IMG/VR virus record: IMGVR_UViG_3300040985_001718
Location: 1-28,720 of that record
Origin: a virus
Taxonomy: Duplodnaviria > Caudoviricetes
DNA length: 28,720 bases
Direction: 5' to 3' (one strand)
The position numbers and the translations under genes were made by a program. The notes beneath the pieces were generated by a model. It did not search any database and was not told where the DNA came from. It saw only the letters and a program-made list of their open reading frames with translations. Of the stretch, positions 5,294 through 18,967 are shown in pieces (positions within the stretch are counted from its first letter, which is position 1; each line of letters starts with the position of its first letter).

Positions 5294-5413
5294 TCCCTAT
5301 GCCCCTCCTGGGCGGTTGAGACGTTCGGAACCCACGCCCCGGCGTGAACCCTTCAACAGTCTCCCTAAGCGTACCACCGAGAAAAGGCGGGCGCACCCTC
5401 GCTAAACTATGAC

Positions 5414-5731
5414 ATGGCGAAAACATCCGATGGGCGGCGGCTCGATGGCTTGACCCTGCGCGAATATGAGCCGGTCAGTAAACAGGAGTTACGGGCGCTG
5501 ACTTGCGCGAATCTGGCTGGCCCTGCACTGTCCGTGGATCGAATATTGCTGGCTCGGCTGCTGATGGAGCGGGACGAGCTTTTGGCCACCTTTGAATCTG
5601 CGCGGCTGCTTTTGGAGGAATTGGAGTCGGAAGGGTTGATTGCTCCCGCCGGCGACGATGAAACCGCCCTTGCTCGATATGCGGTGGCTCTCAAGCGTTA
5701 CATGGATATTGCGGAGAGCGTTGAGGGGTAA
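5414..5731 (+). CDS. Hypothetical protein; lone plus-strand gene between the late and early minus-strand blocks
   Basis: 105-aa helical-looking ORF that fills the gap; TAAACT (5403-5408) lies 5 nt before the ATG. Confidence 0.6.
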   Translation: MAKTSDGRRLDGLTLREYEPVSKQELRALTCANLAGPALSVDRILLARLLMERDELLATFESARLLLEELESEGLIAPAGDDETALARYAVALKRYMDIAESVEG

Positions 5732-7047: not shown

Positions 7048-7195
7048 CGCCCTCTGCCTCCGATTGTCTCAAAGTTTTTTTGATTGAGTTTACGCCGATA
7101 CATGAATTGCAGTTGACTACGAAAATTAGAACCAGCGCCAACCCTATGAAATTGAGTTCGCCCAAGATTTTCTCAAGTAGCTTTTTCTCACTCAT
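7040..7195 (-). CDS. Small 51-aa membrane protein
   Basis: Read by hand: MSEKKLLEKILGELNFIGLALVLIFVVNCNSCIG...; ATGA overlap with the upstream HTH gene. Confidence 0.6.
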   Translation of the reverse strand: MSEKKLLEKILGELNFIGLALVLIFVVNCNSCIGVNSIKKTLRQSEAEGDE

Positions 7196-7452
7196 CGCTC
7201 AACCCCACACTTTCCGCCGACCAGCCTAGTAATATCGCCGATCTTGCACTTTAGGACTTTGCAGATTCCGCCAACGGTGTCGAGGTTCGCAGAGCCTACG
7301 CCTTCCCCGTGGGTATCGATGCGAAAGTTCTTAACGGATATCTCATCCAGTCGTCGGCGTAGATCATTGTTGGATTCCATGCCGCGCTTTTTCATCAAGG
7401 CTTTCACCTTGCGCGGGCAGATAGTGGCGTGTTGGATTTTCTTCTTTTTCAT
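7192..7452 (-). CDS. Cro/C1-like HTH protein (HTH_26-like)
   Basis: KVKALMKKRGM...LDTVGGICKVLKCKIGDI. Confidence 0.7.
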   Translation of the reverse strand: MKKKKIQHATICPRKVKALMKKRGMESNNDLRRRLDEISVKNFRIDTHGEGVGSANLDTVGGICKVLKCKIGDITRLVGGKCGVER

Positions 7453-7619: not shown

Positions 7620-8005
7620 TTTGTCTCCCTCAATCTAAACCAGTGGTCGCCGCCCTCGCGGACGGTTTCGATGCTCATGCCCTCGTTGCGCAGCTCATGG
7701 ATTCGAGCGGCCAACCGGGTATGGTTAAACATGCGGATAGCGTCAAGGCTTGTTAAGCCTTTGGGGTTATCCAGCAGGTACTTTTTGATTTGCAGCTTTG
7801 CGGTAAGGCATCGCGTCTTCTCTGGCGAGTTTTGCGAGTTGCAAGCGTCGCAGAGGTAGTGCGTTTGATCGTGCGGGAAATAGCAGAAAGCTTTGCACCT
7901 TGAGCAATTCCCAATATCCTCACATTTCAAGCAAGGAATCTTGCCCCCATTGCACAAACATTCCGCCCGCTCCCAGACCTGCCTTCTAGTTAATTGTTCA
8001 CTCAT
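7616..8005 (-). CDS. Cys-rich Zn-binding domain fused to a winged helix (HTH_39-like)
   Basis: Several CxxC motifs, then IKKYLL...LTSLDAIRMF..TRLAARIHELRNEGMSIET. Confidence 0.8.
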   Translation of the reverse strand: MSEQLTRRQVWERAECLCNGGKIPCLKCEDIGNCSRCKAFCYFPHDQTHYLCDACNSQNSPEKTRCLTAKLQIKKYLLDNPKGLTSLDAIRMFNHTRLAARIHELRNEGMSIETVREGGDHWFRLRETK

Positions 8006-8078
8006 GCCATTAGTTCACACGGGGAGAAGGATTGCAGTAGTTTTTTCTAATCCGTTCATGTTCATTTCCTCGTCAAAA

Positions 8079-8159: not shown

Positions 8160-9122
8160 TTACCAGCCCAACCCGCTAGGGTTTTCCTGGTTGAAGTCGG
8201 AAGCCGCCGGAAAATCCTCGGCGGCATCAGGCTTAGTTGCGGGTTTTTGCGCTGCCGCAATGGCCTTACCCCTGTCATCAGGTTCCGGGGTTGACTCGCT
8301 CTCATCATTCGCCAACGCTTGCGGTTGATCTGCTGGCGGTGCAAGTGCAGCGGCTACGTCTGCTGGCATTTCCAGCATTTGCGCAGGGTTATGCACTCCC
8401 GCTTCGCCCTGGTCATCCAGAGCGATCATGCGGCGAGCCGTCGTAGACTTTGGCGCATACTTTGCAACACGCTTTAGAACAGTTTTCTTGCTCATTTGCG
8501 CCGGGTATTTCGTCCACGGCGAGTAGGCCGAGTCAGTACCCCTGACGCCTAGACGGATGGCTTGGATTTCCGATTCCGGCATGTAATCAAAGATGGCCTC
8601 GCCAGTCGTCAGCTTCACCATTGCCCAAGCTCCGATGCGATCCCCGCGATCCTCGAACGCCGGAACGTGATTAAGAACTGAGTTCAGCCCCTTTGCGTAC
8701 TCGAATTTGTCATTCCCGTGGACTACGTCAGCGTCAACCAGCGCCACCATTTCATTTTGGTAGAGCGCCTTCACGCAACCGTGATAGCCCATCTCCAGGT
8801 TTGCTACCCACTGGCCGGAGATGAAGCGCGGAATCAGATAGCAAAGCCCCTCTGCGCTTCCCGGCTCCATCCCCAAGCGGATAGCCTCAAGAGCCGCGCA
8901 GGTCAGCGAGTCAAAGGTGCATTGCAGTAGCTTCGGCGTATCCCTGATACAAGTCCAAATCACAGCCTTAAAGCGATCTACCGCCTTGTCTGGCGTCAAT
9001 CCAGGCGTAACTGGCAAAAGGCCGGATATGGCTTTGCGAATGTTGGGGGAATCAAACCATGCGAAAAACTGCACTTGCATATTCGCGGGTTGATTCGTCG
9101 GCGGTTGCTGGTTATCACTCAT
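8160..9122 (-). CDS. recT: RecT-family single-strand annealing protein
   Basis: LGMEP...G.CYLIP, MGYHG, PW..YP.QM.KKTVLKR; YqaJ gene nearby. Confidence 0.92.
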   Translation of the reverse strand: MSDNQQPPTNQPANMQVQFFAWFDSPNIRKAISGLLPVTPGLTPDKAVDRFKAVIWTCIRDTPKLLQCTFDSLTCAALEAIRLGMEPGSAEGLCYLIPRFISGQWVANLEMGYHGCVKALYQNEMVALVDADVVHGNDKFEYAKGLNSVLNHVPAFEDRGDRIGAWAMVKLTTGEAIFDYMPESEIQAIRLGVRGTDSAYSPWTKYPAQMSKKTVLKRVAKYAPKSTTARRMIALDDQGEAGVHNPAQMLEMPADVAAALAPPADQPQALANDESESTPEPDDRGKAIAAAQKPATKPDAAEDFPAASDFNQENPSGLGW

Positions 9123-9136
9123 GCGGTTAGTTTACT

Positions 9137-10144
9137 CTATCGGTTGGGGGTTGGAAGGGTTTTTTCAACTTGCACGATTCTTTCACCGATCCAGCGCATG
9201 ACTGGCACGGCCATACTGTTTCCAATTGCCTTATATCGCGGCCCGTCCTTGGCCGGTTTCCCTCGGTATGTCACCCGCGTATAGTTGTCTGGAAATCCTT
9301 GTAGCCGCTCGCATTCCTTCGGCGTTAGGCGGCGTACCTGCTGCCGCCGAGCGTTAATCGAAACCGCCGGCGCATGAGATCCAGCAGCTAGTGTATGGCA
9401 CGGGTCACCCTGCTTTGGGTCACTCCGGTTCGCCGCACTGGTGATTTGCGTCGTGTCAAATGCCAAATAAGTTTCGTCCGCATTATTGCGACCCGTTCCG
9501 CCCTTCGCCATCAACGCACTAGCTACGCGACCGCCACCATTTCCAAGATTTCCCGCAGCAAGTCCGGCAGTATCTTGCCGCGTTTCTTTGCCCGGCGCAG
9601 GATGCCCGCGCAAGCTTTCACGCTCAAGCAATACCGCCGCAGGTGGTCGCCAGTCTCCAAAATATCCGACAACGAAGACACGGCGGCGACGTTGGGGAAC
9701 TCCGAAATATTGAGCGTCCAAAACGCGGTAGGCGAACCCATACCCGATTTCCCCCAGCCCCCCGAGGAAGGAACCAAAATCCCGTCCGTCGTTTGACGAC
9801 AGGACACCGGGGACGTTTTCCCAGACAATCCACTTGGCGCGTGTTGCATCAGCAAGTCGCAAAAATTCGAGCGCCAGGTTGCCACGAGGATCGTCCATTC
9901 CGCCTCTGAGTCCCGCGACGCTGAAGGATTGGCAGGGGGTTCCTCCCACAAGAAGGTTGATTGATCCATGATTTCTGGGCTTGATTTTCGTCATGTCCCC
10001 CAAGTTGGGAACGCTTGGAAACCGCTCGGCTAACACCGCCGACGGAAACTTGTCTATTTCGGAAAACCATTGAGGCTCCCACCCCAACGGCTCCCATGCG
10101 ACACTGGCGGCCTCTATACCGCTACAAACTGAGCCATACCTCAC
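9137..10144 (-). CDS. DNA (cytosine-5) methyltransferase
   Basis: Motif I SVCSGIEA, motif IV GGTPCQSFS, motif VI ENVPG, motif VIII PQRRRRVF, motif IX RRLTPKECERLQGFPD, motif X YKAIGNS. Confidence 0.95.
   Translation of the reverse strand: MRYGSVCSGIEAASVAWEPLGWEPQWFSEIDKFPSAVLAERFPSVPNLGDMTKIKPRNHGSINLLVGGTPCQSFSVAGLRGGMDDPRGNLALEFLRLADATRAKWIVWENVPGVLSSNDGRDFGSFLGGLGEIGYGFAYRVLDAQYFGVPQRRRRVFVVGYFGDWRPPAAVLLERESLRGHPAPGKETRQDTAGLAAGNLGNGGGRVASALMAKGGTGRNNADETYLAFDTTQITSAANRSDPKQGDPCHTLAAGSHAPAVSINARRQQVRRLTPKECERLQGFPDNYTRVTYRGKPAKDGPRYKAIGNSMAVPVMRWIGERIVQVEKTLPTPNR
9523..9969 (-). CDS. Nested alternative-frame ORF, M.EcoHK31I beta-like methyltransferase partner
   Basis: W.KSGM....FWTLN.SE.P....SSLSDILET....RY.LS.KACAGILRRA.KRGK.LP resembles, from recall, the alternative-frame polypeptide of this MTase class. 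Confidence 0.7.
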   Translation of the reverse strand: MDQSTFLWEEPPANPSASRDSEAEWTILVATWRSNFCDLLMQHAPSGLSGKTSPVSCRQTTDGILVPSSGGWGKSGMGSPTAFWTLNISEFPNVAAVSSLSDILETGDHLRRYCLSVKACAGILRRAKKRGKILPDLLREILEMVAVA

Positions 10145-11134: not shown

Positions 11135-11376
11135 TAGTTCGCCCCCATCAATGCGGAAATCACGATGTACGCGCCGCCCCAAAAGATAGCGCAGGATGCG
11201 AAGATGAAGCCCATAGCAAGCCAAGGGTTCCCCTTCATGCGGTCATCTTCGCTCAACTTCACCCGCGTATTGTGCGACTTGCAAGATGGGCAGTTGGCGT
11301 TGCCGCTCCATTCATCGGGCAAGGGTTCGCAGTGTCCACAGATGAGACATTTCAGGATTGATTGATTTTCACTCAT
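11134..11376 (-). CDS. Zn-ribbon plus C-terminal transmembrane small protein; first gene of the leftward early arm
   Basis: CLICGH...CPSCKS, followed by a hydrophobic C-terminal helix. Confidence 0.75.
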   Translation of the reverse strand: MSENQSILKCLICGHCEPLPDEWSGNANCPSCKSHNTRVKLSEDDRMKGNPWLAMGFIFASCAIFWGGAYIVISALMGAN

Positions 11377-11533
11377 GCCGTTACTCTACATCATCCCGCG
11401 AGAAAAAAAGACTTATTTTGCTTTATTTGCATTCATTTCGTGGTGGGAAATATTTACCACCTTGGGCATAAATTGAAAAATGAGGGGCAAAAACTTCCAA
11501 TGGATCGCGCCGACTGGTTGTATTATGCCCCTC
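11377..11533. promoter_or_regulatory. Divergent early promoter region
   Basis: AT-rich. Leftward TAGAGT (11383-88) is 6 nt before ATG 11376; rightward TATTAT (11521-26) is 7 nt before ATG 11534. GTGGT-N11-ACCAC inverted repeat at 11440-11460. Confidence 0.6.
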
Positions 11534-11977
11534 ATGGGTAAGCACCATAAGGATACGCCAACGGGCAACAATGCGCAAACTCAGCGCGTGAAAGGTTCGG
11601 GACGCCCCAAAAAAGGCGACACCAGCAAGCGGAAAGTCGGGCAACCGAGCAAACCCAACCTTTTCTGCCAGCTAACACGCCAGGAAATGGCCTGCGCTTG
11701 GGCCGAACGCTTAGGCGCAGCCGAAATCCTGGTTTACTGCTTCCTGCGAACCTGGGCCGTCAACTTTGGCAAAGGCCAGGACAGCATGAGCAACAAGGAT
11801 ATGCCTAGCTATGCGGAGATGGCCGAGCAATTAGGGATGCCCTACAGCACATTCCGGCGAGCCGTAGACGGGCTGAGAAAGGCCCGCCTAGTGCGCGTGA
11901 TTAAGAAGTCGAGAAAGGGCGAAAAGGTGCGCATTTTGATTTGCTCGATTCACGCCGCAGATGCCAAAATCTCATAA
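11534..11977 (+). CDS. Winged-HTH protein, probable replication initiator / origin-binding protein
   Basis: LVYCFL...PSYAEMAEQLGMPYSTFRRAVDGLRKARLV; immediately followed by iteron-like repeats. The start could alternatively be 11480. Confidence 0.7.
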   Translation: MGKHHKDTPTGNNAQTQRVKGSGRPKKGDTSKRKVGQPSKPNLFCQLTRQEMACAWAERLGAAEILVYCFLRTWAVNFGKGQDSMSNKDMPSYAEMAEQLGMPYSTFRRAVDGLRKARLVRVIKKSRKGEKVRILICSIHAADAKIS

Positions 11978-12162: not shown

Positions 12163-12783
12163 ATGAGCGAAGAACAAGAGCCAACCCAATTTGCCCCCAC
12201 GATTGAACACGCCGAACGCCTGGGATACTTCATCGCCAGCAAATGCAATAACCCAGTCCCTGCCGGTGATGAGATTAAATCTCTTTTGGCCTTCCTACGG
12301 GAGCGAAAAGAACCCATCGCGCCGTACATTCGCAATGGTGCTTGGCTAGAGCAGGTACGGCAAGACACCGTAGAGATGTTTTCGCGCACCTCTGGCGCGT
12401 CGTTGATCCAATGCTGGATCACCAAGGCCGGAGACAGACTAAACCGCTCAGCGGCGCTTAAAACGGCTGCTGTCGAGCGCGACAAAGACGGCCACGCCCT
12501 GCTTGCCGGTGAAAAACGGTGGACTTTCGAGCAGTTGGAGCGCGACATTGCCCGGTTGCAGTCCCTAATCCCATTCTTCGAGGGGCAGATTTTGGACACG
12601 GAAGGCCGGATCAAGTTCACCGAAACGGAGCAAAGCGAAGCTGACTTCGCCGATTTCACGTTTACCCGGCTGGAATACCTGCGAAATGAGCGGGAAACGC
12701 TCGCCTCATTTGAGAAGGAACTGGCCGACTCCAAAGAGGTTTTGCGACTTCGGCAGCTTACCCGTGACAATTTCCACGCATAA
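12163..12783 (+). CDS. Hypothetical protein, replication-region
   Basis: 206-aa ORF with a helical or coiled-coil C-terminus. Confidence 0.7.
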   Translation: MSEEQEPTQFAPTIEHAERLGYFIASKCNNPVPAGDEIKSLLAFLRERKEPIAPYIRNGAWLEQVRQDTVEMFSRTSGASLIQCWITKAGDRLNRSAALKTAAVERDKDGHALLAGEKRWTFEQLERDIARLQSLIPFFEGQILDTEGRIKFTETEQSEADFADFTFTRLEYLRNERETLASFEKELADSKEVLRLRQLTRDNFHA

Positions 12784-12823
12784 ACCCCTCACACGCCCGC
12801 TAGGAATGCTGTATCATTCCCCG

Positions 12824-12890
12824 GTATCAATCTCTGGTGGATTGGTTCACTCATACTTTCCGGGCGACTTTCGGGTTTCCCGGAATTTTT
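12824..12890 (+). ncRNA. Candidate small RNA antisense to AUGAGUGA gene starts
   Basis: -10-like TATCAT at 12812-17; 5' hairpin 12826-12846; unpaired UCACUCAU at 12847-54; terminator 12858-90. The 5' end is estimated. Confidence 0.6.
12858..12890 (+). terminator. Intrinsic terminator
   Basis: TTCCGGG-c-GACT-ttcg-GGTT-t-CCCGGAA followed by TTTTT. Confidence 0.8.
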
Positions 12891-12925
12891 CTGTTTTATG
12901 CTAGAGGGTGGTGTATTCTAACCGC

Positions 12926-13426
12926 ATGAGTGAAGCCTACGAATCTAGCCACATAAATAAAACCCACTCCTTCCACTGTGGAGCGTGCAACTACTCTGCT
13001 GAGGTTGTTACATCAAAAAGACCTGAGCAAATAAAATGCCCTAAATGCGCAAAGGAAGGTGAAGAACACCCAACAGGAAGTATGGCCGACGCCTTGAAAG
13101 GACCGTCTGACGCTATCGGCGATTTCGACGCGGCTACCAATAAGGTTTTCCCTGATTCGGATCGAGGGAATGCGGTTGACGTAAACGCAAAAAACCTCTG
13201 CCTTACTTGGGATTACTGCCCAGACGATTCAGATGAAACCTTTGACGCTGAGGCCCACATCATGCGCAACGGCATAGGCGCAGTTTCCGGCGTGAACTTC
13301 TGCTTTGGCAGCATTGACGACACCGTAATTGACTTCACCATCGACGGCGCAGCAGATCAACTCCTAGAGGTCTTTGAAGGCGTCTGCGCCCTTATCCGAA
13401 ACCAAACGAACAAACTAAAAGGCTAA
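12926..13426 (+). CDS. Zn-ribbon-containing hypothetical protein
   Basis: CGAC...CPKC N-terminus. Start reassigned to ATG 12926, which lies 6 nt after TATTCT. Confidence 0.75.
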   Translation: MSEAYESSHINKTHSFHCGACNYSAEVVTSKRPEQIKCPKCAKEGEEHPTGSMADALKGPSDAIGDFDAATNKVFPDSDRGNAVDVNAKNLCLTWDYCPDDSDETFDAEAHIMRNGIGAVSGVNFCFGSIDDTVIDFTIDGAADQLLEVFEGVCALIRNQTNKLKG

Positions 13427-14886: not shown

Positions 14887-14932
14887 TAATCACCACGGCC
14901 CCGGCTTCGGTCGGGGCAACTACAATCAGAAA

Positions 14933-15151
14933 ATGAGTGAAATCGAAAAATACATCCCGCCCTTCACGTTCGGCGAGTGGATTCCCGTTACCGCGATGCT
15001 GCCGGATGATGCCAACCCCGTTTTGGTGATTGAAGCAAACGGTAGCGTTCATATCGACGGATACAACGGCGGCAAGGCTGGGTATTGGAATGGATCAGAG
15101 CCTACCCACTGGATGCCGATTCCATCTCCGCCGGAGAAAACTAATGCCTAA
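14933..15151 (+). CDS. DUF551 family protein
   Basis: WIPV...LP....VLV...THWMPIPSPP. Confidence 0.85.
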   Translation: MSEIEKYIPPFTFGEWIPVTAMLPDDANPVLVIEANGSVHIDGYNGGKAGYWNGSEPTHWMPIPSPPEKTNA

Positions 15152-17795: not shown

Positions 17796-18967
17796 TAGTC
17801 AATTCTCGACGCGGTTAGTTTAGCCGATGGTGTGGGAGTTCCACTACCACCTGCATTTGCTGGAATCGTCCAAGTGGAGTAAAGCCCCCACCCGCCGACG
17901 TTGGATTTTTGGTAAATGCGGATATTGGTTGCCGCGCCCGCTGTCAATCCGTCCGTGGAATGCTGCGCAGCGGTGTAACTGGCAGTCTCCGCCGAAACCT
18001 CAATCGTTCGCTCGACCGTGTACGGCCCAGCCACGGAAAGGATCTCCACCTTGTATTCGGCGACATCCTCACCATACGGCCATGCCTTCACGCCAAAGGT
18101 GCGCACTTGGCTCCGGGTTCGACGCGCCCAGTTGATTGTGAGGTTATTGCTGGAATCCCGCGTCCCGTATGCCGCAGCAACCGGCAGCGGAAGCACGTTT
18201 TTACCAGTTGGGGTCAGGGTGAACGGCTCCGCGTCGGCCAAGTCAAAGCCAGCCGTGGCCGCCTTGAAGATCAGTTCTTTGGACAAATCCCCGGCATTGA
18301 TCGGCACGAAAAGCACGCTCGCTGGATCAACCGCGACCACCAAATCGCCAGCATCCCTGCCCGCGATCTCGTTTTCAGTTCCGCGCAAACCCCTCAAAAG
18401 GGCGGAATGCCAGTAAACGCCGTAGGTCGTTCCGTCATCCGATCCAAACCCGGACGAATAGGGAGTAGCTTCGATGGTCTTATAGGCCATGATCTCAGAT
18501 CCGACGATAACCCGATTCGCGCCATTCAAGACCTCTACCTCGGTGGTGGAGGCCGGAGCGTAGGCATCCCGCCACTGAACCGGCATTTTTGAAACGCTCT
18601 CCCAACCTATCGCAAGTTGCGCACCAGCAGCAGCCCGCAGGTATTTCCCGAACGTGCCACTTTCGCCCATTTTATTGGTGGCCGTGGCAAGCAGTTTGCC
18701 CATGTAAGCATGAACCGAAAGCTGGCAGAATTGCGTGAATACGGTTCCACCATCGCGGGAAATGTAAACCACTATCGGTGGAATGCCGCCCACCCTCGCA
18801 GCCGTCCCGTTTCCATCTAGCCCGGTTCCGGCCTCCTTTCCACCTGTCCGAGCGGCAACGTAAACACCCGGCGTCAATTCATCGCCAGGGAATAGCGGCG
18901 GCAGATCCATTACAACCAGGTCAACCGGCGGTGCAATGTAAATGCTATCCCGTGTGCTTGCGCCCAT
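17795..18967 (-). CDS. Tail-tip protein matching the C-terminal part of GTA megatron-like proteins
   Basis: VMDLPPL, VLNGAN...VGSEI, LLRGLRGTE, LTINWARRTR, EYKVEI, RIYQKS..GG.G. Confidence 0.8.
   Translation of the reverse strand: MGASTRDSIYIAPPVDLVVMDLPPLFPGDELTPGVYVAARTGGKEAGTGLDGNGTAARVGGIPPIVVYISRDGGTVFTQFCQLSVHAYMGKLLATATNKMGESGTFGKYLRAAAGAQLAIGWESVSKMPVQWRDAYAPASTTEVEVLNGANRVIVGSEIMAYKTIEATPYSSGFGSDDGTTYGVYWHSALLRGLRGTENEIAGRDAGDLVVAVDPASVLFVPINAGDLSKELIFKAATAGFDLADAEPFTLTPTGKNVLPLPVAAAYGTRDSSNNLTINWARRTRSQVRTFGVKAWPYGEDVAEYKVEILSVAGPYTVERTIEVSAETASYTAAQHSTDGLTAGAATNIRIYQKSNVGGWGLYSTWTIPANAGGSGTPTPSAKLTASRID

Follow-up and report, generated by a model that had tools for sequence, protein, structure and literature searches.

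A candidate phage small RNA with a predicted seed against the first codons of five probably leaderless early genes

The window analysed here is a whole virus record of 28,720 bases with a G+C content of 55% that belongs to a tailed phage. In its middle part, a 142-nt gap without genes (12784-12925) separates the genes 12163-12783 and 12926-13426, and the following features are found in or predicted for this gap:

12789..12854 (-), a 21-codon ORF that begins at the complement of the seed and provides a rival reading of the locus
12794..12799 (+), an upstream hexamer predicted to pair with the 5' arm of the terminator in read-through RNA from gene 12163-12783
12803..12820, a 6-bp inverted repeat around the -10 hexamer, unique within the window, a possible operator or RNA hairpin
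12810..12817 (+), TG and the -10-like hexamer TATCAT, the candidate sRNA promoter, a TGTANNNT site that is also found by a promoter scan
12824..12890 (+), the predicted small RNA of ~67 nt, with a 5' end placed by the 6-nt spacing seen at the target promoters
12826..12846 (+), a weak 5' hairpin, of which the 3' arm and the loop can pair with target nucleotides 9-25
12847..12854 (+), the seed, an exact reverse complement of ATGAGTGA, predicted to be single-stranded (mean unpaired probability 0.80)
12858..12890 (+), an intrinsic-terminator-like element, with a stem of 11 pairs (12858-85) capped by a UUCG loop and U5 behind it

Portal, terminase, Mom-like and ParB-like genes were assigned to the left part of the record by PHROGs and Pfam scans, and the right part contains tail genes. 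The middle is a divergent non-structural region, with recE, dcm, recT and several helix-turn-helix (HTH) genes transcribed leftward, and a replication-initiator-like gene, two family-less genes and genes for an SMC-like ATPase and a DUF551 protein transcribed rightward. At least five HTH proteins are encoded by the phage according to these scans, which covered 30 proteins with PHROGs and 18 window sequences with Pfam, including a minority of the tail-region ORFs; the record looks incomplete. No tRNA or tmRNA was found in the window. The record was found on contigs of marine metagenome runs. Contigs of the runs X1 and X2, which may be the source samples, span positions 12842-13188 and 12567-12892, respectively, with 0 differences, indicating that the sequence at the locus is not an assembly error, and no variants at the locus were seen in the runs X1-X4.

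Several other features of the middle region are worth recording. The segment 11982-12043, directly 3' of the gene for the HTH replication-initiator-like protein (11534-11977), contains a 23-nt sequence twice in direct orientation (96% alike) and a third time inverted; an A-rich stretch follows, and the arrangement resembles an iteron origin. The 206-aa protein encoded upstream of the gap has a distant relative, P0148 (E 2e-15), with an additional N-terminal region of ~170 residues, which by eye is similar to an HTH replication protein and hints that 11534 and 12163 form a split replication module. The DNA cytosine methyltransferase gene 9137-10144 contains a 148-aa ORF in a different frame (9523-9969, (-)); overlapping genes of this kind are found in dcm genes.

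At the level of sequence prediction, the gene-free gap contains the promoter and the intrinsic terminator expected of a small RNA gene, and the predictions of fold and complementarity add a single-stranded seed that is complementary to initiation regions elsewhere. From these elements, we infer a 5' end of the candidate RNA near 12824 and a 3' end at the U run near 12890. The initial annotation had described the unit as a hairpin, a linker and a terminator, and the predicted fold of 12824-12892 indeed consists of the 5' hairpin, an open linker with the seed, the terminator stem and U5 (-21.2 kcal/mol, z -3.07, 0/200 shuffles as good), but the 5' hairpin is not significant when taken alone (z -0.98, 31/200 shuffles as good). 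The UUCG loop is closed by a U-G rather than a C-G pair. Similarly, the -10-like element described previously is present (TATCAT, 12812-17), but the TG directly precedes the hexamer and does not have the classic TGn spacing. There are 4 TGTANNNT sites in the six larger gaps, and the three others precede the genes 11376, 11534 and 12926. The 12810-17 site is also listed by the promoter scan, which overall reports no more sites than are found in shuffles. As plain TANNNT is frequent in gaps (20 in 1,828 nt), we consider the TG-TATCAT form, which matches the target promoters, as modest evidence for a promoter. A search of 4,227 Rfam families, including the C4 and P4 CI antisense RNAs, gave 0 matches at E values up to 5.

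As stated in the initial annotation, six genes begin with ATGAGTGA and its reverse complement lies in the intergenic unit. Counting both strands, the 8-mer is present in seven copies, at 7195(-), 8005(-), 9122(-), 11376(-), 12926(+), 14933(+) and 12854(-), while in 100 dinucleotide shuffles it has 0.62 copies on average and never more than 3. Six of the seven copies are the starts of ORFs of 51-320 aa, and the seventh, at 12847-54, is the reversed copy in the gap. A comparison of early and late starts, which had been suggested as a check, gave 6 occurrences at 21 non-structural starts versus none at 17 structural and packaging starts. AGT, the second codon of the tag, represents only 13 of the 178 internal Ser codons in the non-structural genes. 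The three starts said to have one mismatch (12163, 13492 and 2454) are also present; with pairing ranks of 90, 329 and 679 of 1,504, they were not taken as targets. Tandem palindromic repeats of ATGAGTGA and its complement were seen in two phage contigs (L094, 6877-6978; L096, 363-464).

The genes that begin with ATGAGTGA have the following start regions:

7188..7195 (-), a coupled start with ATGAGTGA that overlaps the upstream stop and belongs to a 51-aa gene
7998..8017 (-), start of a 129-aa winged-helix gene with its spacer and TGAACT hexamer, the second-best partner of the candidate sRNA with ~20 predicted pairs
9115..9134 (-), -10-like hexamer, spacer and recT start, the best non-self partner
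11369..11388 (-), start with ATGAGTGA of an 80-aa gene at the head of the recE-dcm unit, behind a -10-like hexamer and a 6-nt spacer
12914..12933 (+), start of the adjoining downstream 166-aa gene with its spacer and -10-like hexamer, for which pairing in cis is predicted in read-through RNA
14921..14940 (+), DUF551 gene start behind a spacer and a -10-like hexamer, the weakest among the five

A TANNNT hexamer ends exactly 6 nt before the ATG at 11376, 9122, 12926 and 14933, and TGAACT is found with the same spacing at 8005; the spacer AAYSGC is common to four targets. When leaderless starts are defined by a -10 hexamer 5-7 nt before the start codon, five of the six targets fall into this class, all with a spacing of exactly 6 nt, and we therefore regard 8005, 9122, 11376, 12926 and 14933 as probably leaderless. 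The strict TANNNT-N6 arrangement is present at 4 of 38 annotated starts, and all four of these begin with ATGAGTGA, compared with 2 of the 34 others (Fisher p 2e-4). The proposal that the targets are leaderless does not extend to the sixth gene, 7195, which has no -10-like hexamer at 6 nt and whose start overlaps the stop of the preceding gene 7192-7452, indicating that it is coupled and not leaderless. Initiation on leaderless mRNAs has been described as the loading of 70S ribosomes at the 5' AUG, which depends on an accessible start (PMC9031893; 10.1101/2020.05.06.081141), and the accessibility of the start codon is reported to govern this process (10.1101/2020.05.06.081141).

Two other sites in the window resemble these promoters. 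The 12-nt -10 and spacer of the recT promoter recur exactly at 17811-17822 (-), inside the end of a tail gene and without the ATG tag; this copy lies 15 nt before the 17795 start and is a possible internal promoter. A lone 105-aa gene of no known family, located at 5403-5731 (+) on the strand opposite to its neighbours, has TANNNT 5 nt before its ATG and no seed, and is a probable leaderless gene outside the regulon.

In agreement with the initial annotation, complementarity to the candidate RNA ends at the A of the AUG, and the upstream spacer shared by four targets is not matched by the RNA. Since the match ignores this spacer, it covers only what a leaderless message would contain, as expected of selection on an RNA that starts with this A. 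For four targets, the match extends to 9 nt when position 12846 is included. Ranked by ensemble binding energy among 41 candidate starts, 8005, 9122, 12926 and 7195 take ranks 1-4, 11376 is seventh and 14933 ninth, with three non-seed starts within the top nine; among 1,504 ATG/GTG positions, the top two are on the opposite strand of the RNA itself, followed by recT and 8005 as the best non-self partners, and 7195, 11376, 12926 and 14933 rank 21, 44, 57 and 275, respectively, the seed itself being included in both rankings. The initial annotation had also proposed that pairing extends beyond the seed. While recT and 8005 come out as the best non-self partners, the controls for this extension are mixed. 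Only 10 of 1,000 RNAs with a shuffled 5' domain reached the observed value (p 0.01), as did 40 of 393 structure-matched shuffles (p 0.10), and random coding tails gave a p value of 0.12. With the N-termini of other genes, p was 0.14 by duplex and 0.0006 by binding energy, and with synonymous recoding 0.06 and, by binding energy, 0.01. With p values between 0.0006 and 0.14 in seven controls, predicted pairing past the seed is only suggestive, and an extended duplex is plausible for recT and 8005.

How often would such an arrangement arise by chance? With a second-order model, the expected number of reversed copies is 0.025 for the gaps (1,197 nt in total) and 0.0004 for positions up to 40 nt from this terminator, and 0.008 chance copies are expected from the 773 of 57,440 positions that precede a loosely defined terminator; these values have to be read against the scan of some 250,000 windows from which this one was drawn, in which a coincidence of the order of 1e-3 to 1e-4 is expected somewhere. 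A seed of 8-9 nt is short, and this was counted against a non-chance origin. Among 147 fetched loci, 3 of 145 copies of the 8-mer passed the loose before-terminator test, none of them with a single clean stem.

A bias in the starts of the host genes was considered and rejected as the whole explanation, as TANNNT-N6-ATGAGTGA is too sparse in the bacterial genomes sampled. It was found at 126 sites in 183 genomes of three phyla, with a maximum of 8 per genome, as compared to 4 in this 28.7 kb, the true host of the phage possibly differing from these phyla; the sites are distributed as 37, 49 and 40 over three 61-genome samples, taken from the phyla of the Haloferula, Pirellulaceae and Anaerolineaceae records. 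The outcome named in the initial annotation as speaking against its proposal, a motif equally common at late-gene or host starts, was not observed in this window or in the genomes sampled. In 10 genomes picked because they hold a related site, 11 sites were seen, and in five genomes the 213 TANNNT-N5-CATGA sites included 6 with the pattern, two of which had been the basis for selecting the genomes. When GTDB was scanned for ATG-AGY-GA behind a -10 and a spacer, 48 loci in many phyla were obtained, and 31 of these have an open frame of at least 100 codons, which indicates that this layout is a general leaderless configuration. A count of 3/57 leaderless-like starts in fetched loci was left out, as some of these loci had been selected for the motif. 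A stricter promoter-start pattern is present three times in the window and not twice on any contig of the matched loci (3 viral, 48 genome, 45 metagenome). The most frequent start 8-mer in each of two annotated phage halves is used by 2 of 58 and 2 of 61 genes, respectively. Because the pattern is sparse in the genomes sampled and is not repeated on any of the matched contigs, and because shared start 8-mers are rare in the two phage halves, we conclude that something keeps the five starts identical.

The searches for relatives provided little material for comparison. The upstream gene 12163-12783 had no matches in IMG/VR or the JGI metagenomes, either as a single sequence or as an alignment, and relatives of its 206-aa product at ~60% are P0002, P0022 (encoded on a 28,484-base ENA contig) and P0147. 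The SMC-like protein has a relative in P0004. The recT search returned no relatives, the terminase search one unrelated contig and the tail tube search no matches in GTDB. Eight loci were found with a portal alignment and have only structural genes in common with the phage, and among 401 Planctomycetota genomes, 4 encode distant portals (29-41%). For the 17-nt seed region, 24 matching viral loci were found, and none of them is related. The pattern of seed, gap and leaderless start gave 12 loci, of which none is related and none has the seed before a clean terminator, and the promoter-start pattern was present once in each of its 3 viral, 48 genome and 45 metagenome loci, none of them related in the viral and metagenome sets; such pattern scans may omit records very near the window. 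By blastn, 3 chance matches to the gap (E 6) were found in 50,697 phages. In the unrelated phage L026, an identical extended -10 and spacer precede two leaderless-type genes (6604 (-) and 7205 (-)), one of which starts with ATGAGTGA.

We propose, with moderate confidence and for this one genome, that the gap 12784-12925 encodes a trans-acting sRNA of ~67 nt that would block five leaderless early mRNAs by pairing with their 5' tips. An explanation at the DNA level seems unlikely to us. The repeats could be a copied promoter cassette or an asymmetric repressor site over +1, similar to stoperators or start-associated sequences (SAS), and the reversed copy would then be an operator or a coincidence beside an ordinary terminator. 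Such a view is consistent with the ~20 nt, including the spacer upstream of the ATG, that four targets share, with the HTH proteins encoded by the phage, and with the start-associated 13-mers of Cluster K mycobacteriophages, for which one reversed copy away from genes is described (PMC3203893); phage L026 also repeats a similar promoter before two genes. However, the repeat in L026 ends at the ATG and its coding bases differ. The seventh copy in our window does not have the upstream spacer of the promoters, its match being confined to the sequence that begins with the ATG. In addition, stoperators are described as asymmetric 13-mers, which are present in more than 20 copies that all point along transcription and are inactive when reversed (PMC9283540). 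In the phage studied here, there are 7 copies of an 8-mer (with a match of 8-9 nt), and the odd one is reversed with respect to plus-strand transcription. Least probable, in our opinion, is that the reversed copy represents a seventh gene start, belonging to the 21-codon minus-strand ORF or to the relic of a lost gene, with transcription from the back of the 12926 promoter. The ORF starts exactly at the motif, and the -10 box of 12926 overlaps with a minus-strand TAGAAT hexamer in the 18-bp divergent promoter arrangement that has been described as common in bacteria (10.1101/2020.01.31.928960); several chance matches of the architecture pattern are, moreover, true divergent gene pairs. Yet neither a -10-like hexamer at 6 nt nor a clear ribosome site precedes this start, a hairpin is located 3 nt before it, and the ORF has no Pfam match. 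The U run is on the plus strand, and the same overlapping hexamer is found at other target promoters, where it results from the shared spacer, and is not special to this site.

A role restricted to cis is improbable as well, though we rate it slightly above a seventh gene start and below a DNA-level repeat. In that case, the unit would be the tail of the mRNA of gene 12163, in which the upstream RNA disrupts the terminator and the seed of the read-through RNA folds onto the 12926 start, so that 12926 would be translated only from its own leaderless promoter. The predicted read-through fold contains a long hairpin with the seed half hidden and a terminator pair probability of 0.00, it is 6.1 kcal/mol better than the terminator-forced fold (2/500 shuffles of the upstream 40 nt are as strong), and for RNA that extends beyond 12945, cis pairing between the seed and the 12926 start has a probability of 0.86-1.0; these are equilibrium predictions that were found after the fact. 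On the other hand, cis pairing explains one target and leaves the 8-mer at the remaining four leaderless starts, some as far as 5 kb away, unaccounted for, the best partners are recT and 8005 and not 12926, and a 7-bp hairpin persists before the U run in the antiterminated fold. Action in cis and a trans-acting sRNA are compatible and can coexist. Tentatively, and with some doubt, one might go further and picture a phage riboregulon dedicated to leaderless messages. A single 67-nt RNA would recognise a tag in codons 1-3 of a group of leaderless early genes and switch them off jointly, and the same DNA would act as a two-state device, in which RNA made from its own promoter would terminate and expose the seed, whereas read-through from the upstream gene would hide the seed and weaken the terminator.

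Returning to the trans-acting sRNA, we envisage that an RNA is made from 12824 to the U run near 12890 and that its seed docks on the 5'-terminal AUG of the five leaderless messages. In the case of recT and 8005, pairing would then spread into the weak 5' hairpin. The covered AUG would prevent the loading of 70S ribosomes, and the double-stranded end may also alter the decay of the message. Leaderless messages lack an untranslated region, so that the target site must lie within codons 1-3, which would account for the Met-Ser-Glu/Asp N-termini and the rare AGT codon. The likely purpose would be a joint and delayed damping of the recombination and early units of both arms after accumulation of the RNA; we infer this timing role from the targets, as these are the lead genes of such units. 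For the immunity switch that the initial annotation had put forward as an alternative we found no support, as there was no integrase, plasmid-prophage module or cI/cro-type cassette among the 30 PHROGs-scanned proteins and 18 Pfam-scanned sequences of this apparently incomplete record.

Antisense RNAs with some of these properties have been reported. The c4 antisense RNA of P1/P7 is also made by a phage, pairs in trans through exposed single strands near an initiation region of a phage mRNA and blocks translation (PMC12197685), as is predicted here, but it acts on the ant mRNA around the ribosome binding site, whereas the candidate RNA would act on five separate, probably leaderless messages with the site in codons 1-3. 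SviR of the Vibrio phage satellite PLE is one small RNA that uses a seed against several operons of its own element (10.1101/2022.04.08.487710), which is again what we predict. It pairs, however, with 5' UTRs that hold the ribosome site, while our targets would have no UTR and the seed would lie over the first AUG. The B11 (6C) sRNA of Mycobacterium abscessus has a multi-target seed as well, and among the affected genes, one is leaderless and has complementarity over 6 nt near the beginning of its coding sequence (PMC10470900). In contrast to the dedicated set with a shared 5' tip proposed here, B11 is chromosomal, acts mainly as an anti-Shine-Dalgarno RNA and has this single leaderless gene. 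The start-associated sequences of Cluster K phages are asymmetric repeats at the ATG starts of non-structural genes with one reversed copy off any start, similar to our 8-mer, but they are 13-mers with a Shine-Dalgarno core located 3-7 bp upstream of the start, whereas ATGAGTGA is 8 nt long, begins with the ATG and has no such core (PMC3203893). In the two annotated phage halves, 15-18 forward copies of this sequence are present per half genome. The phage Anaya (JF704106) contains a single reversed start-associated sequence (29871-29883) in a 385-nt gap without genes, just behind a strong hairpin; by analogy with the layout described here, this copy may be part of an overlooked antisense RNA for SAS leaders.

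A 2022 review considers gene-specific control of leaderless mRNAs by sRNAs plausible, and its authors state that they are aware of no report (PMC9031893). Similarly, our search of the open-access literature found no phage sRNA aimed at leaderless starts. If the candidate RNA is real, it would show a way in which leaderless mRNAs can be controlled by an sRNA, with the regulatory site placed in the first three codons at the cost of a fixed protein N-terminus. It would also provide a searchable signature, consisting of shared first codons and one reversed copy before a terminator, in phages of leaderless-rich hosts. For the phage itself, the RNA would represent a protein-free timing device for early genes, which is compact and could be rebuilt in reporters.
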